Source: Bacilli bacterium | Lineage (GTDB): Bacteria > Bacillota_I > Bacilli_A > RFN20 > CAG-826 | Direction: 5' to 3' | Length of the DNA stretch: 64,000 nt | Assembly (NCBI GenBank): GCA_024408565.1 | Contig: JAKSUW010000002.1 | Span: 31,993-95,992, forward strand | Shown: positions 1 to 58,967 of the stretch, piece after piece | How positions within the stretch are numbered: the stretch's first letter is position 1 | Layout: each line of letters opens with the position of its first letter | The notes under the pieces: model-generated | What the model saw: only the letters and a program-made list of their open reading frames with translations | Database searches by the model: none | Told to the model about the DNA's origin: nothing | Made by a program: the position numbers and the translations under genes

Positions 1-699
1 GATAATGACATCCATTTTGCCTGACGGGCATTCTTTTGCATCTAAGCCTTCAATTGCTTCTTGCGCGGTATTACGCGCAATTTGATTAATATCTAAGGTT
101 TTAAAATAATCCATGTTACCCGTAGTGCCTGGAATAGCAAAGGCGCTTTCGTGTTGGTCGCCACGGCTAGCTTCCGCGCGGAACACTAAACGAGTATGTT
201 CGCGGGAGTCTTTGACATGTAAACCATCACTATTATAAATTTCGATTTTTTTCTGATCACCGACAAAGGATACAAGAGCGCGTGTTACTAATGGTGAAAC
301 TTCTTTCATCGCTTGAGTTGCTTGTTTTAAAACGGCAATTTTTTCTTGAATTGGTGTTTTAAAATAAGCGCCATCGTTGGGATTAATGTTTTTTACTCGT
401 TGATTGATAAAATCACGGCATTCCACGACTTTTTGTCCATGAAAACCATTCGCTAATTTTTGGGCGAGCGCGATTAAGCGGCCCCCTTTTAAATCATTGG
501 TGTAACCATAAACACTATGATCACCTTTTAGTAAACGAATACCAACGCCGGAAGAAGATACATTCGCAACGCCTTCAAGCACGCCATTATCAAGATTAAT
601 TGCGTTTTTCTTTTCTTCTTCGTAATAAAGTTCAGCAAAATCGGCGCCTGAAACGAGGCCCGCTTCTAAGACTTGTTTAGCGAGTTTTTTACTAATCAT
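1..699 (-). CDS. TldD/PmbA family (peptidase U62) protein, N-terminal part; gene runs off the window start
   Basis: Minus-strand frame open to position 1. N-terminus MISKKLAKQVLEAGLVSGADFAELYYEEEKKNAINLDNGVLEGV... resembles the TldD N-terminus (E. coli ...DYGDLYFQ...). ATG at 699..697, overlapping the stop of the upstream gene. Confidence 0.55.
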   Translation of the reverse strand, partial: MISKKLAKQVLEAGLVSGADFAELYYEEEKKNAINLDNGVLEGVANVSSSGVGIRLLKGDHSVYGYTNDLKGGRLIALAQKLANGFHGQKVVECRDFINQRVKNINPNDGAYFKTPIQEKIAVLKQATQAMKEVSPLVTRALVSFVGDQKKIEIYNSDGLHVKDSREHTRLVFRAEASRGDQHESAFAIPGTTGNMDYFKTLDINQIARNTAQEAIEGLDAKECPSGKMDVII

Positions 700-1885
700 T
701 GGTGTAATTGTCGAAATATCCTTGGACTAAAATAATCGGCGTACCCTTATCGCCTGAACCACTAGTGAGATCACACAATGAACCTAATAAATCGGTGAGA
801 AGACGCGGAGTAGTGCCTTGTGTCGCCATCGTGCCTTTTAAATCTTTGGCTTTATTTTTAATTGATTGAGAAATAGCCGCTTTTAATTCTTCGCCTTTTA
901 AATCTTTGAAGTCATTGTCGGCAAGATATTTAAGTTTTAATTCGTTTGGCGTACCGATTAAACCATCAGTGTGGAAAGGCGAAACAACCGGATCGGCTAA
1001 TTCCCAAATTTTTCCTTGGGGATCTTTGAAAGCGCCGTCACCATAAACCATCACTTCAACGTGTTTACCGGTTTTTTTAAGGATGTCATTTTGAATTTTC
1101 TCCACTAATCCTTGTGCGTCACGGGGGAATAATTTAACAGTAGTTTCAGTAGCTTTATTAGTGCCTAAAAGACCATAATCTTTGTTATAGCCACTCCCGT
1201 TAATAGAACTAGTTAATATGTCATCAAGTCCTAAAACAATCTGTGCACCCGCAGCTTTTAATAAGCGCTTAGTTCTTGCACGAGTGTGAATATCGCAAGT
1301 TAAAATTTTCTTTGTGTAATTAAGAATTGCTTTTGGCTGATTAGCGAAAATTACTTCAGCGGTCGCGCCTTCACCTTCAATTAATTTAATGTAGTATTCG
1401 ATATAATCCACGCCAGTAAATTCGTGTTTACGGAAACCAAATAATTGCCGATACCGTTCAAGTGTTAAGACATCGGAATAAGGATTAATGCCTTTCGCAT
1501 CTAAGTCATCATAGGTTAATAAGGAATTACCAACTTCATCACTTGGATAAGAAAGCATTAGAATAATTTTCTTAGCACCACGCGCAATACCTTTTAAAAG
1601 TACGCTGAAGCGGTTCCGTGAATAAATCGGAAAGATAACACCGATGGTGTCGCCACCAAGTTTGTTTTTAATATCTTGACCAATAGCATCGATACTAGCG
1701 TAGTTACCTTGAGCCCGTGCCACGACAGATTCAGTAACCGCGATGACATCTTTATCACGTAAAGAGAAATGATCAGTTTGGCCCGCGGTCAAAACACTAT
1801 CGACAACAATTTGGGCTAGGTTATCGCCCTCTTTGATAATAGGGCAACGAATTCCTCTTGAGATTGTTCCAACGTTTCGAGCCAT
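692..1885 (-). CDS. CofE-like protein (F420-0:gamma-glutamyl ligase superfamily, long ~400-aa Firmicute type); function unknown
   Basis: 397 aa. GIRCPIIKEGDNLAQIV...DKDVIAVTESVVARAQG matches the CofE N-terminal signature (P-LIKEGDDLAELI...GDVLVV.S.VISKAEGR). AAGGAG RBS 8 nt upstream of the ATG at 1885. Confidence 0.4.
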   Translation of the reverse strand: MARNVGTISRGIRCPIIKEGDNLAQIVVDSVLTAGQTDHFSLRDKDVIAVTESVVARAQGNYASIDAIGQDIKNKLGGDTIGVIFPIYSRNRFSVLLKGIARGAKKIILMLSYPSDEVGNSLLTYDDLDAKGINPYSDVLTLERYRQLFGFRKHEFTGVDYIEYYIKLIEGEGATAEVIFANQPKAILNYTKKILTCDIHTRARTKRLLKAAGAQIVLGLDDILTSSINGSGYNKDYGLLGTNKATETTVKLFPRDAQGLVEKIQNDILKKTGKHVEVMVYGDGAFKDPQGKIWELADPVVSPFHTDGLIGTPNELKLKYLADNDFKDLKGEELKAAISQSIKNKAKDLKGTMATQGTTPRLLTDLLGSLCDLTSGSGDKGTPIILVQGYFDNYTND

Positions 1886-1966
1886 TATTTTCTCCTTACT
1901 ATTTCTGCAGCGTATTATTTTACCATACTGGTAAAAAAGTGAGAATTATTTTCATTGATATATAAA

Positions 1967-2044
1967 TTTATATTTATAAATAAATATAGATAAATATTCG
2001 CGTCATCCCAGTGTTAATTTGCATATTTACTATATGAGGAGGGG
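1967..2044 (+). repeat. Copy 1 of a ~75-nt intergenic repeat: AT-rich quasi-palindromic core TTTATATTTATAAATAAATATAGATAAATATT + ATTCGCGTC + spacer + TACTATAT + GAGGAGG
   Basis: Near-identical 38-nt core also at ~38083-38120 (1 mismatch). The whole element recurs inverted at ~58975-59050. Ends in an SD-like GGAGG 7 nt before an ATG (2049). Confidence 0.6.
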
Positions 2045-2112
2045 ATTTATGGTCCGCTTCTTAGGAGTCGTCGAATTGGGGATCGACACGTGTGGCAAGA
2101 AAAGGAGGCGCG

Positions 2113-2175
2113 ATGAGCGACACTCTCATCTTGTTAATATTGGTGTTGTTGTTAGCGATCGTTATTAAGGGCTAA
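2113..2175 (+). CDS. Hypothetical 20-aa hydrophobic micro-ORF (MSDTLILLILVLLLAIVIKG) in the ABC-operon leader
   Basis: ATG preceded by AAAGGAGG (4-nt spacer). Single predicted TM helix. Stop followed 7 nt later by hairpin GGATGGG-acaaa-CCCATCC. Overlaps an alternative 39-aa ORF (2049..2168, MVRFLGVVELGIDTCGKKRRRDERHSHLVNIGVVVSDRY) that is also RBS-preceded. Confidence 0.2.
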   Translation: MSDTLILLILVLLLAIVIKG

Positions 2176-2182
2176 CAAAAAA

Positions 2183-2201
2183 GGATGGGACAAACCCATC
2201 C
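2183..2201 (+). promoter_or_regulatory. GC-rich hairpin (GGATGGG/CCCATCC, loop ACAAA) right after the micro-ORF stop
   Basis: Perfect 7-bp inverted repeat read in the sequence. No U-run follows, so not a classic intrinsic terminator. Confidence 0.4.
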
Positions 2202-2257
2202 TAATCAACCCAAATATATTTTACCATACCTCTGTCGAAACTCAAGCCCTCATCTCC

Positions 2258-2275
2258 CGGCGCCTCCGGGCGCCG
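2258..2275 (+). promoter_or_regulatory. Strong GC hairpin (CGGCGCC-tccg-GGCGCCG) 12 nt upstream of the ABC start codon
   Basis: 7-bp all-GC stem, in a genome that is ~36% GC. No SD sequence between it and ATG 2287. Confidence 0.4.
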
Positions 2276-2286
2276 CTACAAATGTT

Positions 2287-4326
2287 ATGTATCGATTAGT
2301 TAATGTTAGCAAACAATATAGTAAGCAAAACGTCTTACACCATGTGACCCTTACTTTTCCTACGCACGGTTTAGTAGCGATTGTGGGTAAATCAGGGTCG
2401 GGGAAGTCGACTTTATTAAATTTACTTTCAGGAATCGACCATCCCACAACTGGTACAGTGATGTATGGTGGCGATGATTTAAACAAATTTAATGCGGCAG
2501 AACTAAAAACCTATCAAAATGAAAAACTTGGTATTTTATTTCAACACTTTAATCTCTTTAATGATTTAACAAGTATGCAAAATGTGGTGATACCAGCACT
2601 TATTAAAGGCGAGAAGAAAGCAAAAGCGTATGAATCCGCTGCTAAATTATTTAAGCAATATCATTTGGAGAATTTAAAAGAACAAAAATATGGAACATTA
2701 TCAGGTGGAGAAAAACAACGAGTGGCGTTATTACGCGCTTTGATTAATCATCCAGAAGTGATATTAGCTGATGAACCAACCGGTGCACTGGATAGTAAGA
2801 ATAGCATCTTAGTGATGGATGAACTTAAGAAACTAGCGAAAGATTATTTAGTCATTGTCGTTTCCCATAATGATGCATTAATTCGTCAATATGAGGATTA
2901 CCGTATTAATATCGTAAACGGGAACGTGAGTCCTCTATCAGCGGTACCGACACAAAAGAAAATTGTTAAACATCAACGGCATAGCAATCATCTTTTAATG
3001 CAAACATTTTTAAAATTGCATTTAAGTAAGCATCGTGTTCGTAACTTAATTAGTTTAGCTGCGATTAGTTTCTCCACACTAAGTTTTTTATTATCAGTGG
3101 GTTATATTAACGGCTCAAACGCTTCACGAGCAAAGTATGAGCAAGAATCACTCCTATATAACTCGGCCACCATCGCTAAGAAAACCATTATTGAATTGCC
3201 AAATTCGCCAATTAAAATTTCTAAATTATCTCGACCAAACGACGAGGAATTAACGTTTTTGACGGATGAACTAGCAAGTGTAGAAGTGGTGAATAATTAC
3301 CAAACCGTTTTTCCAAACGCACCAGTTTTTATCTTTGATCAACAGGAAATTAATGATATCGATTTTGCTCCTGTTTATGATTTCCATATTTATCAAGATT
3401 TATTAATCACTGGGAAAATGCCATCACCAAATTTTCAAGAAATTATTGTTAATACCGAATTTATCAATCGTTTCGGATACCAAAAAGAAAATATTATTGG
3501 TCGTAATTTGCGGCTATCAAGTATTGTGACGATTAATAGCAAAGTTGGTAGTGATTATATAAAAGATATCATTTCTTATTCGGATGAATTAACGATTACC
3601 GGTGTAGTGGAAGAGTTTGCCTATCTTAATATGCCGCGCGTTTATTATTCATATTTGGGTTTACAGCATAAATTGAAAAACACTTTACTTGTTAATTACT
3701 CGCATGCGCTTGGCTATAACGCGACAATAGATGAATTAGTGAGCAACGCGACAAGTGATGATCCTAACAGTGGCTATGCCTATTACTTATTTATAAAAGA
3801 TATCAAAGAAATGAATCGCTTATACCAATTAAAAGTAGAGCACGATCGATTAAACGACTTTGATATTGCCTCAACTACTTATTTAATCGCGGGGTCTTAT
3901 GAAGATATGACTAATATCATCGCCACCTCACTAGTGGTTTTTCTAATTTTGACGCTGTTAGCGACACTTACAATTATCATTATTGCTTCTTATTCTAACT
4001 ACACGCAAAACAAGCAAGAAAGCGCGATTTTATCGGTTTTAGGAGCCAAGCGAAATGATATATTTAGCATTTTTAATGCAGAAAATTTATTAGTTGCAAT
4101 TGTCGGTTTACTCCTTGCGTTTATTTTGGCGTTCCCAATGCAATTATTAGCCAACCAAATTATCGCGAACGCTTTCCATCTAACAAATTTAATTGTGGTG
4201 CCGTTTATTAGCTATTTGTCACCACTAATCATATTGTCGGTTTTGCTACTTACTTCGTTAGCGGCTTTTATTCCTTTTATGTTTTATGAGAAAAATTATA
4301 TTTTGGAGGAATTAAAAGACGAATGA
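2287..4326 (+). CDS. MacB-type fused ABC transporter: N-terminal ATP-binding domain + FtsX-like permease with a ~270-aa extracytoplasmic domain
   Basis: Walker A GKSGSGKST, signature [15 protein letters not shown], Walker B ILADEPT. One TM after the ATPase, a large hydrophilic domain, then three C-terminal TM helices (MacB/FtsX topology). I place the start at M of MYRLVNVSKQY (in frame with track ORF 2185); the upstream 34 codons are Pro-rich translation of the GC hairpins. Confidence 0.8.
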   Translation: MYRLVNVSKQYSKQNVLHHVTLTFPTHGLVAIVGKSGSGKSTLLNLLSGIDHPTTGTVMYGGDDLNKFNAAELKTYQNEKLGILFQHFNLFNDLTSMQNVVIPALIKGEKKAKAYESAAKLFKQYHLENLKEQKYGTLSGGEKQRVALLRALINHPEVILADEPTGALDSKNSILVMDELKKLAKDYLVIVVSHNDALIRQYEDYRINIVNGNVSPLSAVPTQKKIVKHQRHSNHLLMQTFLKLHLSKHRVRNLISLAAISFSTLSFLLSVGYINGSNASRAKYEQESLLYNSATIAKKTIIELPNSPIKISKLSRPNDEELTFLTDELASVEVVNNYQTVFPNAPVFIFDQQEINDIDFAPVYDFHIYQDLLITGKMPSPNFQEIIVNTEFINRFGYQKENIIGRNLRLSSIVTINSKVGSDYIKDIISYSDELTITGVVEEFAYLNMPRVYYSYLGLQHKLKNTLLVNYSHALGYNATIDELVSNATSDDPNSGYAYYLFIKDIKEMNRLYQLKVEHDRLNDFDIASTTYLIAGSYEDMTNIIATSLVVFLILTLLATLTIIIIASYSNYTQNKQESAILSVLGAKRNDIFSIFNAENLLVAIVGLLLAFILAFPMQLLANQIIANAFHLTNLIVVPFISYLSPLIILSVLLLTSLAAFIPFMFYEKNYILEELKDE

Positions 4327-7070
4327 TATCACTTAATAAGATTTCCAAACGTTATAAAAATCCGGTGGTAAATAATTTTTCTTATACCTTTAAAAACCGT
4401 GGATTAATCGTGGTTTTAGGGAGCAGCGGTTCAGGAAAGAGCACACTTTTAAACCTTATCAGTGGAGTTGATTTAGATTACCAAGGAGAGATCCAACTAG
4501 ATGGCACTAATTTACGACTTTTAAATCTAACCGAACAAAGTAGTTTTCGTCTTAACCAAACCGGTTATGTTTTCCAAGATTTTAAATTACTAAATTTACT
4601 CAGTGTGAAGGATAATGTTTTGTTTAATTTAGACGCAATTGCTTCCGTAAGTAAAAGCATGAAAGAAGAGATGCTTGACCGGGCACTTAATTATGTTGGT
4701 TTAATGCCCAAAAAGAATGTAGCGGTGAAGTCATTAAGTGGGGGAGAAAAACAACGGGTGGCAATCGCTCGTGCAATTGTGACTGAACCGAAATATTTAT
4801 TGTGCGATGAACCAACCGGAAATCTCGATGATAAGACGGCTATTCAGATTTTTGAATTATTAAAAAAATATAGCGAGACTCATCTAGTCATAGTAGTGTC
4901 ACATGACCAAGAAAAATCATATAGTTATGCGGACGAAATCATTCATTTACAAGATGGGGAAATTCAAACAGTTGAAAAACTACATCCGATTGATGAAAGA
5001 AAGTTACCGAACGCCAAAATTGAAAAGAAAAAATGGCCGAGATTATCACTTAATTTATTGTTGCGAGCTGGCGTTAGAAAAATGAAAGAGAAAAAATGGC
5101 GTTCAGCCTTTGTTAATCTCTTGTCTTCTAGTTCGCTACTCGCATTAGGGGTCGGAGTGATGATTGCCACTACTCTACGCAACCAAATTATTGAATCTTT
5201 CAATAACGTTGTGGAGGAAAATGAGATTCTTGTTAGTAAACGGAACGCTGACCCTAATCCTTATTCTTATTACATCTCTACACCGGAAGATGAAGTGCGT
5301 ACTTTATATGAAGAATACGGTGATTATTGTTATGACATGGGTGTTATGTATCTTAATAATTTCAATACATTTTTTACAACTTATGACCGTGTGAATCTTC
5401 GTTATATGGAAGATTTTAAAGTGCCACTTCCCTCTTTTCATAGCGCGCTATTTGTGAATTATGTTTGGCCGGAAGAAAAAATAATTAATCGTTTTTATCC
5501 AGATTTTTCCGGTAAGTTAAGTATCGATGAAGTCATTATTGGTATTACGTATAGTCAAATGGTTACGCTTTGTCAATCACTCCAAATTCAAAGGTCTTTC
5601 GAAGCCCTAGGAGCATATCTTGAAGCGAAGGAAATTATGTTGTCACTAGAAGTTGCTAATGCCGATTGGGAATATGAAGACAAACAAGTTATGCGCTTAA
5701 AGGCAGTTTATAACTCAAGTGTTCCTGAGGTATACCATACAAACCATTATTTTAATCAGAACCTATTTGAAGAGAAGATGCGATTCCCAATTACTTTAGA
5801 TATCAATGCGACTGATTTAGCACCATTTACTTTAAAGAAAGTATTTACCCTCCACACGATTGAAGCACCAACTAATTTAATTGAAGAAGTCACTTATGAA
5901 GCACGTTTTAACGATATTTTATTAGAACGGAGTGAAAACTTTTTAAAAGATACATGTGTAACAACCGATAGCTGTTTACGAAATGTTTTACTAGTATTCA
6001 CCTTAGACAAAAATACAGTTAATGTTTCTGACATCATTTACTTTAAGCGGGTGGCGAACGCAATCAAAGCTTATTACCCATCAACTTATGGTGGTTATCA
6101 AATGCATAGCAGTGGGTTACTAGCGGGTTTTGTCAGTAACATTGGTTTTTCTTTTGATGAAGAGAAAATTGTCGCGGTCGGTGATTATTTCGCTAAACAA
6201 ACAGAGGGAGAAATGGAAGATTTTCCAGGAGTCGCTATCGGCAGTATGACTCGTTTTAATAATCATGGCGTATTGTTTTCGAGTGACTTATCAAATATTG
6301 AACAAGGTGAAGCGCCAACTAGCTATGACGAAATTGTTTTGTCTACGGGATTAATCGATTATTTAGGCATAAAGACTAATCCGATTGGTGAAAAACTTTA
6401 TTATTGTATGTATTCTTCAACTCTTGATGCTGTCATCATTCATGAATTTGTGGTGACGGGTATCGTCAATAATCCACAAAATTATCTTTACCATTTTCCC
6501 TTATTCACTATTTCCTTTTTCCGTGATCGCTTAGGTGTTTCTTCTTTTAATTTATTACCAACTTCGTTAGTTTTAACTTTTGATGAAGGCGTAAACATGG
6601 ATTTGTTGGTTAGCGATTTATCCGCCGCTTTTAAAGATTATCAATTTACCTCGCCACTTGTTGAAATTGGCAAAACGGTTGATGAAGTAATGAGCTATGT
6701 CAAAACGATTGCCTTTATTTTTATTGGTGTAACACTAGTCGTTACAATTATGCTTTTATCACTCATTGCTTATTTAAATACATTAGAAAATAAAAAAGAT
6801 GTCGGTTTACTAAAACATCTTGGTCATCCACGGGAAACCATTATGCAATATATGCTCTCTCATACTTTAGTGATGTCGTTAATCGCTACTGGATTAGCAG
6901 TACTAGAAATGCTCGTCTTACAAATCTTTATGTCGGGTGCGATGGCTAGTCTTTTCGGTGGTGGGACCATTTTAAACATTTCACCATTACCGTTCCTTAT
7001 TATTGTGGTGGTCGGCCTATCATTGCCGTTATTAATTACCGGAATTATTACGCGTTTGTCGCTTCATTAA
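4323..7070 (+). CDS. Second MacB-type fused ABC ATPase/FtsX-like permease (915 aa) with a ~500-aa extracytoplasmic domain
   Basis: Walker [33 protein letters not shown] ~residue 260, long hydrophilic domain, three C-terminal TM helices. ATGA overlap with the previous gene, so probably a heterodimeric partner. Confidence 0.8.
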
Positions 7071-7823: not shown

Positions 7824-8936
7824 ATGGCACTTAAGGCAGGAATTGTTGGTCTACCAAATGTCGGCAAATCGACACTTTTTAACGCAATTACTAACTCCCA
7901 TGTTGAGGCTGCTAACTATCCATTTGCGACGATTAATCCTAACACTGGGGTGGTTATGGTGCCTGATCAACGTTTAGATTTTTTAAGTCAAGCCTTTAAA
8001 CCCAAGAAAACGATTTATGCGACCTTTGAATTCTATGATATTGCTGGTTTAGTGAAAGGCGCTAGTAAGGGCGAGGGATTAGGTAACCAATTTTTAGCCC
8101 ACATTCGTGAATGCGACGCGATTGTCGAAGTCGTGCGGTGTTTTGATAACCCCGATATTATCCATGTTGAGGGCTCTGTTGATCCTAAACGCGATATTGA
8201 AACAATTAATTTAGAACTCGCGATGGCGGATTTAGATACGGTGAATAAACGCCTAGCCAAAGTTGAAACTAAAGCAAGAACGAGTAAAGACAAACAATCA
8301 TTATTTGAATGTAGTGCGCTTAAGAAAGTGAGTGAAGCACTTAATCAAAACAAGAGCATTCGTAACCTTACTTATACAGAAGATGAGTTTAATTATCTAT
8401 TTAAAGAAATTCACCTTTTATCATTAAAACCAATTATTTATGTCGCCAATGTAAGTGAAGATGATTATGCTAATTTAAATAATGCGAAATATCTCAAAGT
8501 GGTACAAGATATCGCGAGTGAGGAACACGCTCAAGTGATTCCAGTATCGTGCGAAATCGAATACCAAATTTCGACTTTACCACCAAACGAACGCAAAGAA
8601 TTTTTAGCTTCACTTAACCAAACTGAATCGGGCTTAGATAAGTTAGTGAAGGCAAGTTATCAACTTTTAAATCTGTCGACTTTCTTTACGGTTGGTGCCG
8701 ATGAATGTCGCGCTTGGACGTTTAAAAACGGAATGTTAGCACCTGATTGTGCTGGTATCATTCATACCGATTTTAAAAAAGGTTTTATTAAAGCCGAAGT
8801 TTATTCTTATGACGACTTTAAAACGCTTGGTAGTGAACAAGCGATTAAAGAAAGTGGTAAATTAAGAATGGAAGGAAAGGAGTATAAATTTCAAGATGGC
8901 GATGTAGTCTTCTTTAAATTTAATGTTTCAAAATGA
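7824..8936 (+). CDS. ychF: Ribosome-binding ATPase YchF
   Basis: [24 protein letters not shown]-domain, C-terminal TGS-like domain, 370 aa. Confidence 0.9.
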
Positions 8937-37500: not shown

Positions 37501-38080
37501 TTGGGGTGAAGAGACGAACCATATTTATACCGAGAATTCCGCTTGCCAAGTTTATATTCGCGCTTTAACTGGTCCGACTGATTTCACTCCTTATATTTAT
37601 CCGGCGAGTCGGAGTGATACCACGATGGGACAACAATTAGCGTATCCAGTCGCCTTTGAATCAGGGTTAACCTGTTTTGCAAGCTCAATTGAAGAATTCG
37701 ATGGCCTTGATGATAATCTCAAAGATTACTATTATGCTTATCCTACAGTTTGGGCGAACACTCATTATTTAAGCGGCAATGTAAACGAAGGTTTAACCGT
37801 CGCAAGAGAGAGCCGCGATGGTCGCTATTATGTTGGCGGCTTTAATAGCTACGCGAAAAACGAAATAATTAAACTTGATTTCTTAGACCCGAATAAAACC
37901 TATGAGGCTAAGATTTACACCGATGGGGCGAACACTCGCTCGGTCCACTATAACACTGTAAAAGTGCGCTATGGAGAAGGGATTAGCATTCATATGAACC
38001 ATAATGGTGGATTTGCTATTAAACTAACACCTGTCCATAACGACAGCATCCAAAACGCCCAATTAGCGTTCCTTAACTAA
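34559..38080 (+). CDS. Large surface lipoprotein: N-terminal NPCBM-like carbohydrate-binding module + clan GH-D (GH27/GH36/GH97-like) alpha-glycosidase TIM barrel
   Basis: Lipobox LVLSSCGHN. YVYLSDLQPSKVVSG... fits the NPCBM start motif. TIM-barrel strand motifs VTSWSWMSG, GWKYYILDEGW (GH27 IDDCW-like) and GFVGVKADFFDS (KxD nucleophile region). 1173 aa. Confidence 0.55.
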   Translation: MKKYFTLLGALTVAGVLVLSSCGHNPRQPATPVIEDEKEPEFADYVYLSDLQPSKVVSGSDKHNFLGVDAGLTATGGTHQLALLTDKENNIATVYQKGIILHAGKDAQVVYNITNMGATRLTGIFGINANVSDTSSAAKLKIVVDNETLYESPRALTPLDLAINVAVTIPVDAKELTIMMIDDGNHADSHAIFATPRLYANYYDLDAYEINKDTVTDYRGVHRNSTPSAQLKLETVYKANFNNDNYYPISRRFQHGFGLHTFDKDEAGTEDKGTSSYTINLPNTGTANRRFTAFFGNSSDQSTDSNPTLKFEVTENEASSFSTTKNLKDPAINIKKGSFIDIALKPNTTSLTFKTTGVDEKGKSGSSCHPVLVMPRVYVPDFDLSKPYQFDLNAASPYLKPGESLNYQALYKDYKGNVHDISNDDDLKIYLTEEAKPSFIVSGKDVIALDIGGQEQGKGELNFEYQGVSQIVGILTNDDGLERTSLVSPDGSNTITVELVDGAPYYSITHGQEAIVRASPLGFKAVVNKTDAETFDFTEGLSLQSKTTAQHIHETYSMVSGKYSEYINDYNTQDVTFKNAKGKSITIELRAYNDGCAFRYSFGDGVTAFTFNNGEATEMHLDPNSLLYFQQSRNFHKYSGSHEEIYYVERNPAPYPDWDGTYVDSGTKPQESGQMNVPAGIQINGMLMPFLFKTVNNTSVVMSEAGLDGSYAGSMVNRIYSTDNCSAYKINVPPQDYYHYMNTEPGYQRAHYNFTSPWRAFVIGTEKTMVETTMIENLAPAQDMTTDFSWVKPGVTSWSWMSGVNTSPDAQEYQGREDVIRNQIDLAARMGWKYYILDEGWPNRVTTEEAIQRGYVSEYADHFPGKFPIPGPEGFRDYTPEVMAYAKSKGIGLIAWIHVGQFNDPTNNYEQMEKLISSLKDVGFVGVKADFFDSESQFTIDLENRLYECLLKHKMIANLHGANKPTGERRHYQNVINREGVWGEETNHIYTENSACQVYIRALTGPTDFTPYIYPASRSDTTMGQQLAYPVAFESGLTCFASSIEEFDGLDDNLKDYYYAYPTVWANTHYLSGNVNEGLTVARESRDGRYYVGGFNSYAKNEIIKLDFLDPNKTYEAKIYTDGANTRSVHYNTVKVRYGEGISIHMNHNGGFAIKLTPVHNDSIQNAQLAFLN

Positions 38081-38082
38081 AT

Positions 38083-38155
38083 TTTATATTTATGAATAAA
38101 TATAGATAAATATTCGCGTCTTTTTGGCCTCCTTTACGTATATATAAATAGGAGG
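38083..38155 (+). repeat. Copy 2 of the ~75-nt intergenic repeat
   Basis: TTTATATTTATGAATAAATATAGATAAATATTCGCGTC + TTTTTGGCCTCCTTTACGTATATATAAATAGGAGG. The 3' half aligns with the reverse complement of copy 3. CCTCCT/AGGAGG can pair as a hairpin. Confidence 0.6.
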
Positions 38156-38196
38156 TCAGTAAAAAAGTTTAGTTATTACCTATTCACATTTATGTT

Positions 38197-38225
38197 TTGC
38201 GAATTAATAACCATTGTTATATAAT
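38197..38225 (+). promoter_or_regulatory. Putative sigma-A promoter of rpsF-ssb-rpsR (TTGCGA-17-TATAAT)
   Basis: Hexamers read in the sequence ~85 nt upstream of the rpsF ATG. Confidence 0.5.
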
Positions 38226-38310
38226 CTACTCACGCAATTAAAAGTTAGTTGCTCGCTCTCTTGCTATTAATAAATATTAATAATAGCCAGATGTCCAAAG
38301 GAGGGAAAGT

Positions 38311-57805: not shown

Positions 57806-58655
57806 ACGGATTCTTGGTAAGTATGTGCCTTATGATACCGTGATTCATCGCCTTGATCCGCGGTTAAAGATTATGGCGATGATTATGCTCATGGTTTCCA
57901 TCTTTTTAAGCTATGGTAGTTGGACCATGATGTTTACCTTATCCGGGATTAACTTAGTGGTGATTGTGGCTTTAATGTTTATTAGTAAGGTCAGGATTCG
58001 CGACCTTATTTGGCAACTGAAGAGCTTATATATTTTAATTATTCTTCTCATGATTATTAATATCTTTTTACCACCCGCTCATAGTGTTCATATAATTGGT
58101 AAAATCGGTAACCTTAATATATATGCAGAATCCTTCTTACAAACGGGCAAAATTATTATTCGTTTAATGGAGATGCTAGCGGTAGCGATGATATTAACTT
58201 CATCCACTACGCCGCAACAATTGACCCAAGGCTTTTCTTGGTTTACGCGGCCGTTAAAGAAAATTAAATTCCCGAGTGAAGAGATTGCGATGACAATTTC
58301 TTTAGCTTTGAGATTTATCCCAACTTTATTAGAAGAAACAGAACGACTTTATAAAGCTCAATCAAGTCGTGGGGTGGACTTTAAACATGGTAGCCTCATG
58401 ATGAAAATTAAAGGTATCACCTCATTAATTGTTCCTTTATTTGTCGCTTCGTTTGCGATGAGCGATGATTTAGCGTTCGCGCTGGAGGCGCGTGGCTATA
58501 ATCCACGTGGCACTCGCACTAATTACCGGGAATTACATTGGTCAACTAAGGACACAATTTGTTTAATCTTAGTCACTCTATTTATGACTGGTTTCATTAC
58601 TTTAACGGCAATGAAGTTCGATTTTATTAAATTAATTTTCCCATTAGTTTGGTAA
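57798..58655 (+). CDS. ecfT: ECF transporter transmembrane component EcfT
   Basis: RLDPRLKI... EcfT coupling motifs (ALEARG). 285 aa. Confidence 0.85.
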   Translation: MDKRILGKYVPYDTVIHRLDPRLKIMAMIMLMVSIFLSYGSWTMMFTLSGINLVVIVALMFISKVRIRDLIWQLKSLYILIILLMIINIFLPPAHSVHIIGKIGNLNIYAESFLQTGKIIIRLMEMLAVAMILTSSTTPQQLTQGFSWFTRPLKKIKFPSEEIAMTISLALRFIPTLLEETERLYKAQSSRGVDFKHGSLMMKIKGITSLIVPLFVASFAMSDDLAFALEARGYNPRGTRTNYRELHWSTKDTICLILVTLFMTGFITLTAMKFDFIKLIFPLVW

Positions 58656-58967
58656 CTTCTTAAGACCGTTATAGTCTAGACGCGCTTCAATTCTATCAAT
58701 CCGTGTTTCAAGGCCATCAATCCGCGCATTAACTTGTTTAAACCCGGCGTTCATTTCGCTTCTTAAGCTATTTAGGCCATTACTAAGCCCATCAATCTTT
58801 TCGACTAACTGAGCCATGGTTATTCTCTTTGTCTTCTTTTTCATCACTGTCTTGCCGGGTGTTCCTTTAACTTTATAATACACCTTAAGAAATACATCTA
58901 GTGGACATTTTTTTAAAATCTCCATTACTTTTAATGCATTCATGAATTCACTCTGATATTTATCCAT
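58644..58967 (-). CDS. Hypothetical protein with C-terminal coiled coil (107 aa)
   Basis: Translation uses the GGAGG of repeat copy 3 as its SD (GGAGG-aatttt-ATG). C-terminal heptad-like region ...LSNGLNSLRSEMNAGFKQVNARIDGLETRIDRIEARL. Confidence 0.4.
   Translation of the reverse strand: MDKYQSEFMNALKVMEILKKCPLDVFLKVYYKVKGTPGKTVMKKKTKRITMAQLVEKIDGLSNGLNSLRSEMNAGFKQVNARIDGLETRIDRIEARLDYNGLKKLPN

Follow-up and report, generated by a model that had tools for sequence, protein, structure and literature searches.

In a 64,000-nt stretch of the genome of a Bacilli bacterium (contig JAKSUW010000002.1 of assembly GCA_024408565.1), hereafter called the window, the segment 1969-2275 appears to form a separate cassette of micro-genes that is conserved and laid out like a toxin-antitoxin module of type I. 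It is located between a promoter region and ABC1, the first gene of an operon for ABC-FtsX exporters, and we hold this explanation with about even confidence. The cassette contains a leader open reading frame (ORF1), an overlapping ORF for a hydrophobic micro-peptide (ORF2), a hairpin and a promoter that are both read on the minus strand (hairpin 2 and the antisense promoter), and a GC-rich hairpin at its 3' end (hairpin 3). Comparison of related loci shows that the peptide gene, the arrangement of ORF1 and the minus-strand promoter and terminator are conserved, and that the copy number of the cassette changes. The original prediction for this region described the two micro-ORFs, three hairpins and an ABC gene start that lacks a Shine-Dalgarno sequence (SD), all of which were found in place; a type-I-toxin-like small hydrophobic peptide was only one of its listed alternatives, and this is the reading that the comparative evidence favors.

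The loci compared (L numbers) are ABC1 orthologues gathered through protein searches, contig look-ups and one genome scan. The cassette was sought only beside ABC1, and the sampling is anchored on ABC1 loci. Twelve units were compared across the cassette-bearing loci, 11 of which are complete. From 5' to 3', a unit consists of an AT palindrome, an SD and start codon of ORF1 (SD1 and ATG1), an SD (SD2) with a hydrophobic ORF of ~20 codons, an A-run with a hairpin, a minus-strand extended -10 element, and a GC hairpin, after which ABC1 begins. This order is shared by L006, L007/L011, L010, L012, L013, L014, L017 and L019, and ORF2 recurs in these loci (L007 of the pair L007/L011) upstream of ABC1 orthologues that are just 50-59% identical.

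Among the 12 strongly hydrophobic ORFs of 15-35 amino acids on both strands of the window, ORF2 is the only one led by an SD. Its hydrophobic residues number 14 of 15, above the 10 of 15 in the criterion of Fozo et al., and it is intergenic and below 60-70 amino acids. The ORF2-type peptides across the units read MSDTLILLILVLLLAIVIKG, MNETIIILLIVLLLVVLAKG, MLDTILLMVVLTLLIELISRR, (M)IDRLIIILVLLVLLALNR, MNKLIILLLVVYLLIDKLSGK and MSELTCLLLVIYLIIKELSC. In four pairs of units, the substitutions at codon positions 1, 2 and 3 are 17, 5 and 26, respectively, and the nucleotide alignment of ORF2 has an invariant T every 3 nt, which is the second position of the hydrophobic codons. This pattern indicates that ORF2 is under constraint at the protein level. 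A peptide homology search with extended ORF2 frames gave no match at E ≤ 10, and a protein-pattern scan of a metagenome contig collection found nothing.

Hairpin 2 (GGATGGG/CCCATCC, 2183-2201) begins 7 nt past the ORF2 stop codon, and the 42 nt past this stop, which include the hairpin, have a predicted folding energy of -13.5 kcal/mol (z = -9.3 against shuffles). A hairpin is present at this place in all 12 units, 4-11 nt past the ORF2 stop and always with the A-run on its 5' side, even between lineages in which the stem sequences are unrelated. Because the A-run is on the 5' side and no T-run follows the hairpin on the plus strand, hairpin 2 is predicted to be an intrinsic terminator for the minus strand; the original prediction missed that the T-run exists only on that strand. 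A hairpin beside an A-run should be read on the opposite strand in annotation. Closely related pairs differ only in the loop (the window and L001), by a change from G·U to A-U (L007 and L010), or by a compensatory swap from C-G to G-C (units 0 and 1 of L019). The covariation score of hairpin 2 was 0.45 against 0.21 in shuffles and was reached by none of 500 of them, in an alignment with an imperfect register (67% of cells paired). A covariance model of the promoter plus hairpin (R1) recovered exactly the 12 units in 162 kb, including that of L001, which was absent from the training set. A weak extra match of R1 in L018 (265-321) was rejected as an ordinary promoter with a hairpin in the 5' untranslated region (UTR).

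The antisense promoter lies 15 nt upstream of hairpin 2 in the window, and a minus-strand TGnTAnnnT element was found 13-19 nt upstream of the hairpin in 11 of the 12 units. A consensus promoter scan independently of this motif places a minus-strand promoter in the window, L006 (11/12 matches), L014 and L017. The strict pattern TRTGnTAWWAT occurs only five times in the window, and at least three of the other four occurrences are just 5' of annotated gene starts; promoters of the TATGgTAAAAT type are the strongest of this genome. From the conserved promoter and terminator, we infer an antisense RNA of 34-41 nt across the units, which in the window (~36 nt) would be fully complementary to the 3' UTR of ORF2. 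A 13-nt exact direct repeat, TATTTTACCATAC, was observed at 1916-1928 and 2217-2229. It was considered as a target-site duplication and rejected, as both copies are the -10 cores (TATGgTAAAAT) of minus-strand promoters, one for the F420-ligase-like gene and the other for the antisense RNA.

ORF1 is conserved in position but not in sequence. In all 11 complete units it crosses SD2 and stops 3 to 62 nt beyond the start of ORF2, and all three relative frames are used. Stop and start overlap as GTGA in L012 and L019; in L006 and L014, the two ORFs are fused in frame. SD1 and SD2 rank among the strongest SDs of the window. The invariable run of ORF1 across SD2 and into ORF2 suggests that translation of ORF2 is coupled to that of ORF1, which is the simplest reading of this arrangement. 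Fold prediction gave an unpaired probability of 0.02 for SD2 in the window; SD2 is likewise paired in L010 and L017, but not in L006. Hairpin 1 (GTCGA/TCGAC, 2070-2087) is weak alone and is kept only in the closest relative. The original prediction had made its case dependent on conservation of the micro-ORFs and hairpins in orthologous loci, which holds for ORF2, hairpins 2 and 3 and the position of ORF1 and fails for the sequence of ORF1 and for hairpin 1.

Hairpin 3 closes each of the three tandem units in L019 and is therefore part of the unit rather than of ABC1. It has no U-tract in the window and probably serves the peptide mRNA as its 3'-terminal stem-loop or as a leaky terminator. Over 8 nt, SD2 (GGAGGCGC, 2104-2111) and the 5' arm plus loop of hairpin 3 (GCGCCTCC, 2260-2267) are perfectly complementary. 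Short anti-SD-like stretches also lie directly 3' of hairpin 2 in several of the other units. By analogy with the hok or aapA1 mRNAs, such pairing may be a long-distance lock of the SD, but it is not consistent across units.

The copy number of the cassette varies among close relatives. L019 has three tandem units, the last of which lacks a canonical ORF2 start, and L012 has one, at 72% identity between their ABC1 proteins. In L018, the palindrome/promoter module is joined directly to ABC1 by a clean loss of ~250 nt; the ABC1 proteins of L007 and L017, which both carry the cassette, share 76-77% identity with that of L018. The deeper relatives L015, L016, L020 and L049 have no cassette and show the ancestral order FTHFS-DUF951-ABC1-ABC2 with a short DUF951-ABC1 spacer. 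Because it is triplicated in L019, deleted in L018 and absent from the deeper relatives, the cassette is best read as a lineage-specific insertion that is open to duplication and loss. Tandem duplication and patchy presence among close relatives, a tendency of type I systems, are thus both found here (three units, one and none in L019, L012 and L018, respectively).

Features of the cassette and its immediate surroundings in the window
Feature	Position	Strand	Description
F420-ligase-like gene promoter	1917..1945	-	TTCTCA-17-TAAAAT with TG; outside the cassette; -10 region forms a 13-nt repeat with 2217-2229
AT palindrome	1969..1988	.	Perfect, TATATTTAT-AA-ATAAATATA; 5' boundary of the cassette in every relative; three copies in the window
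SD1	2036..2044	+	GAGGAGGGG, 4 nt before ATG1; SD1 and ATG1 present in 11/11 complete units
ORF1	2049..2168	+	Leader ORF, 39 codons, ATG start
Predicted stem-loop	2051..2116	+	ORF1 codons 2-5 pair with the SD2/start region; hairpin 1 is the apex
SD2	2101..2108	+	AAAGGAGG, precedes ORF2
ORF2	2113..2175	+	20-aa single-helix hydrophobic peptide MSDTLILLILVLLLAIVIKG, ATG start; candidate toxin
Predicted antisense RNA	2176..2211	-	~36 nt, with GGGUUGAUU as its tail, then the terminator hairpin and U6; predicted from the promoter/terminator pair
Hairpin 2	2182..2202	-	Predicted intrinsic terminator: AGGATGGG-tttgt-CCCATCCT, then TTTTTT
Antisense promoter	2218..2245	-	TTGAGT-16-(TATGg)TAAAAT, extended -10 type
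Hairpin 3	2258..2275	+	CGGCGCC/GGCGCCG, all-GC stem at the 3' end of each unit
ABC1-ABC2	2287..7070	+	ABC1 2287..4326, ABC2 4323..7070; fused ABC ATPase-FtsX permease genes 3' of the cassette

In the mechanism that we propose, four points are inferred: that the RNA is expressed, that the peptide is toxic, how repression works, and whether the ABC genes are affected. A sense transcript from near ATG1, with a predicted peptide mRNA of ~227 nt, would carry ORF1, ORF2, hairpin 2 (which is no terminator on the plus strand) and hairpin 3, and would probably continue into ABC1-ABC2 in the window genome. ORF2 would yield a transmembrane peptide of 20 residues. A stem formed with the opening codons of ORF1 would lock its SD, and ORF1 always extends across that SD, such that ORF2 would be translated only when ORF1 is, in a coupling like that of mok and hok. 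The strong convergent promoter (2245..2218) would produce the RNA of ~36 nt that ends at hairpin 2. By analogy with the Gram-positive 3'-overlapping type I systems, this RNA would promote cleavage or decay of the peptide mRNA, or silence it in another way.

Published search criteria for type I toxins are tandem duplication, small transmembrane peptides and polar C-termini (PMC2887945). In Gram-positive systems the antisense RNA lies 3' of the toxin gene, and Hok and Ldr provide examples of leader ORFs; type I toxin mRNAs are typically 150-400 nt long with anti-SD pairing and a 3' stem-loop, and the antitoxin RNAs are typically 60-200 nt long (PMC8594479). The cassette matches these hallmarks, including the polar C-terminus of the peptide and the length of the predicted ~227-nt mRNA, except in the usual length of the antisense RNA. 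The cassette resembles the Gram-positive 3'-overlapping systems (Fst/RNAII, SprA1/SprA1as, TxpA/RatA and BsrG/SR4) in its small hydrophobic peptide gene, in its tandem duplication and patchy presence, and in a structured toxin mRNA with predicted anti-SD pairing and a 3' stem-loop. With Fst and SprA1 it would also share a convergent 3'-side cis-antisense RNA that does not cover the ORF. In contrast to these systems, the peptide has only 20 residues, the predicted RNA is 34-41 nt long, the terminator is not bidirectional and no second complementarity was detected; furthermore, the cassette has a leader ORF and sits in an operon leader rather than alone. The cassette peptides had no profile match in Pfam and NCBIfam to Fst/Ldr, Ibs, Hok, TxpA or other named toxin families.

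Features of the enterobacterial hok/mok/sok and Ldr systems that recur here are an overlapping upstream leader ORF with probable coupling, predicted sequestration of the toxin SD, and tandem or multicopy units. However, Sok base-pairs with the mok start region in the 5' leader, while the cassette has its antisense gene 3' of the ORF, and Hok has ~50 residues without sequence similarity to ORF2, whose host is of the Gram-positive type. The Ibs peptides (18-19 residues) are likewise almost purely hydrophobic and encoded in tandem repeats, but Sib covers the whole ibs ORF, whereas the cassette RNA would stop at the stop codon, and the cassette is not a member of this family. A full-length alignment of the antisense strand to SIB_RNA (RF00113; 21.2 bits, E = 0.16) was treated as a chance match, being below the gathering score of 56 and having no counterpart in seven homologous loci. 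The antisense RNAII of plasmid pMV158 is a functional RNA of 48 nt with a tail, a hairpin and a U-tract (PMC4485353). It is similar to the predicted RNA in its short single-stranded 5' tail, single terminator hairpin and U-tract, and in its target, an intercistronic stretch of a polycistronic mRNA. However, it serves plasmid copy-number control by acting on the translation start of the downstream gene, whereas the target in the cassette lies ~75 nt 5' of ABC1, just past the peptide ORF. Like KdpF and AcrZ, ORF2 encodes a short single-helix peptide as the first cistron ahead of transporter genes; unlike them, the cassette is missing from some orthologous operons, occurs in tandem copies, and has its own predicted antisense RNA gene and leader ORF.

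The cassette has no match in Pfam, NCBIfam or Rfam, and as a type I system it would represent a new family whose RNA is unusually small. Its confirmation would add a type I toxin-antitoxin family from uncultivated gut Bacilli with reduced genomes, known from metagenome-assembled genomes of horse faeces and other gut sources, a lineage that appears to be without described type I systems, although no literature search was aimed at it. Such a family would unite traits so far seen apart, namely an Ibs-sized peptide, a Hok-like coupling leader ORF, and a Gram-positive 3'-side antisense gene shrunk to ~36-40 nt. The module would moreover reside in the 5' leader of a housekeeping-type ABC exporter operon, which would raise the question of whether expression of the host operon depends on, or is regulated by, a selfish cassette.

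Several observations weigh against a type I system. The predicted antisense RNA overlaps neither ORF2 nor its ribosome-binding site, it is shorter than the antitoxin RNAs typical of type I systems (PMC8594479), and its 5' tail showed no consistent complementarity to the translation start regions in duplex predictions (z from -3.2 to +1.6). Apart from the window, L010, L017 and L006, the units are indistinguishable from shuffles in the sequestration of SD2, which is statistically unremarkable in half of all units. No sense promoter in the window meets the scan criteria. In Pfam and NCBIfam, the ORF2 peptides have no family at E ≤ 10 except two non-toxin noise matches. L008 has a hydrophobic mini-ORF 33 nt before ABC1 that is accompanied by neither the antisense promoter nor the hairpins. 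Finally, the stable position next to ABC1 in nine genomes could reflect a functional link to the exporter.

Such a link is the core of the main rival, a possible though rather doubtful reading in which ORF2 encodes a small membrane protein partner of the ABC-FtsX exporters (an accessory subunit, regulator, inducer or substrate, similar to KdpF, AcrZ or PSM/Pmt) that is co-transcribed as part of the machine, while the leader ORF and the antisense RNA tune the stoichiometry. Wherever it was found, the cassette stood directly 5' of ABC1, at ABC1 identities of 50-59%, but the bias of the sampling to ABC loci makes this linkage less informative than it appears. Co-transcription is likely, as no sense-strand promoter is recognizable between the cassette and ABC1, and L008 has the hydrophobic mini-ORF alone before ABC1. 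Type VII (MacB/FtsX) ABC systems act on membrane-embedded substrates, which also speaks for a partner. However, L018 retains intact ABC1-ABC2 without the cassette and the deeper relatives never had it; with the cassette absent beside intact ABC1 in L018, L020, L015, L016 and L049, an obligate subunit of the KdpF kind is not what is found. Moreover, L019 has three diverging copies ahead of a single ABC operon, and every copy brings an antisense promoter, a terminator and a 3' hairpin of its own. A quite improbable combination of the two ideas is a toxin-exporter addiction module, in which the MacB/FtsX-type pumps would extract the co-transcribed, membrane-toxic 20-aa peptide and act as a protein-level antitoxin or immunity factor, the miniature convergent RNA would split or tune the transcript, and the cell would be addicted to the operon; RNA control of type I would thus be joined with immunity by efflux.

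It is unlikely that the cassette serves the ABC operon chiefly as a cis-regulatory leader, with an irrelevant peptide product and with read-through and ABC1 translation set by translation of the upstream ORFs (ORF1/ORF2), by the convergent promoter (through transcriptional interference or antisense-guided processing) and by hairpin 3. Its location between ABC1 and the only plausible upstream promoter region would suit this role, and pMV158 RNAII provides a precedent for a mini antisense RNA against an intercistronic region that controls the downstream gene (PMC4485353). However, the target of the predicted antisense RNA ends ~75 nt before the ABC1 start codon, and in tandem arrays only the last unit abuts ABC1. 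ABC1 lacks an SD in the cassette-bearing loci and has one in the more distant L008, L015, L016 and L049, but the cassette-less L018 breaks this pattern, since its ABC1 also lacks an SD, and SD-less starts are the norm in this genome. The amino-acid-level constraint on the ORF2 peptide, with its conserved hydrophobic second-position T, is likewise at odds with an irrelevant product. The leader-peptide-dependent attenuation put forward in the original prediction found no support: there is no terminator/antiterminator pair on the sense strand, none of the 12 units has a sense-strand hairpin with a U-tract between the micro-ORFs and ABC1, hairpin 2 faces the minus strand, and hairpin 3 has no U-tract. 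Its suggestion of a riboswitch fared no better, because all Rfam matches in the window stayed below the gathering scores, seven homologous loci yielded none at E ≤ 1, and the only conserved sequence outside the promoter and hairpin signals has a 3-nt coding periodicity. The translational control that it proposed survives in a weaker form, in that ORF1 resembles a leader that couples translation to ORF2 rather than to ABC1. Lastly, the micro-ORFs and hairpins could be chance or decayed sequence, non-functional remnants in a rearranged spacer. The spacer did arise by rearrangement, with upstream synteny unlike that of the relatives, and hairpin 1 and the ORF1 sequence are not conserved, but all other elements are kept in position and structure across seven lineages despite sequence turnover. 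The comparative data thus effectively refute this explanation, to which we assign hardly any weight.

ABC1 starts at the ATG at 2287, which has no SD, as the original prediction stated; the NCBI model of 679 residues and the conserved MY(R/K)LVNVSK N-terminus of the homologues agree on this start. Because 36 of the 60 genes (long ORFs) in the window lack an SD, the SD-less start of ABC1 is ordinary for this genome, in which such starts are the majority. Many of the SD-less genes have a TATAAT 6-15 nt 5' of the ATG, for example those starting at 7824, 17733 (minus strand), 19632 (minus strand), 44704, 55593 and 61249 (minus strand). This spacing suggests that leaderless or near-leaderless mRNAs are widespread in the organism. 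A TTGATA-16-GATATT promoter whose end lies 6 nt before ATG1 in L017 suggests a leaderless ORF1 there; this promoter is not cleanly transferable to the window.

The ABC1 frame is open for 34 codons upstream of 2287 (2185-2286), from an ATG within hairpin 2. This upstream extension was not seen in the four orthologous loci checked (L010, L012, L013 and L014) and is probably due to chance. In L012 (~2287) and L019 (~912), two independent assemblies of one sub-clade, an ATT replaces the ABC1 ATG that all other orthologues keep (…ATT TAT AAG = (M)YK…). Likewise, an in-frame ATT in the units of these two loci gives an ORF2 length closer to those of the other peptides than the upstream GTG does. The ATT could be a non-canonical start or a sign of decay. 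In L017, the second ABC gene (3555..4148) is cut to 197 residues and directly followed by a PmbA/TldD gene, indicating that the two-exporter operon is not intact in all cassette carriers.

The region is flanked by a minus-strand F420-ligase-like gene (692..1885) and by the plus-strand ABC1-ABC2 genes. Two proteins of the window are 100% identical to NCBI entries from a metagenome-assembled genome labelled 'Bacilli bacterium', and a near-identical relative is GCA_024408655.1, from horse faeces. The upstream synteny of the window spacer differs from that of all relatives, and the spacer is a product of rearrangement. The original prediction overstated the GC content of the segment at ~55%: it is 47.8% over 2040-2286, compared with 38% for the whole window, and 56% is reached only in 2049-2112.

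A module of ~90 nt that includes the AT palindrome occurs three times in the window, at 1964-2050 (plus strand), 38080-38160 (plus strand) and 59050-58960 (minus strand). It consists of the perfect AT palindrome (TATATTTAT-NN-ATAAATATA), an A-run or TTCGCGTC, and an SD-sequestering hairpin, and it was the only sequence found when 1886-2290 was compared with the rest of the window by blastn and tblastx. The module is also present in L004 (2487-2506), L007, L010, L012-L014 and L017-L019; L014 has a symmetric variant of the palindrome, TACATTTAC-TA-GTAAATGTA, and a small bidirectional terminator follows the palindrome in other genomes. When metagenome and viral collections were searched for the palindrome as a DNA pattern, all matches were unrelated, AT-rich sequences of marine and viral origin, and none had a cassette. 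The palindrome could be an operator or a recombination site or hotspot. In UBA1719 (L004, 1938-5191), an S6-SSB-S18 operon and a cluster of FAD-protein, F420-ligase and TldD genes diverge from one spacer that contains the palindrome. The same two blocks are 36 kb apart in the window (1-2050 and 38080-38310), each with a copy of the module, and the FAD-protein gene is missing. This arrangement indicates that the rearrangement breakpoints coincide with the palindrome module.

A family of coiled-coil proteins of ~90-107 residues with the C-terminal motif NARLDY..NLKDLP is encoded in the window (58644..58967, minus strand), L007 (2392..2661), L017 (851..1159) and L018 (1119..1409); it matches no Pfam family and has only weak coiled-coil matches in PHROG. 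Direct repeats of the palindrome module surround this gene in L007, L017 and L018, which gives it the appearance of a cassette inserted just 5' of the micro-ORF unit.

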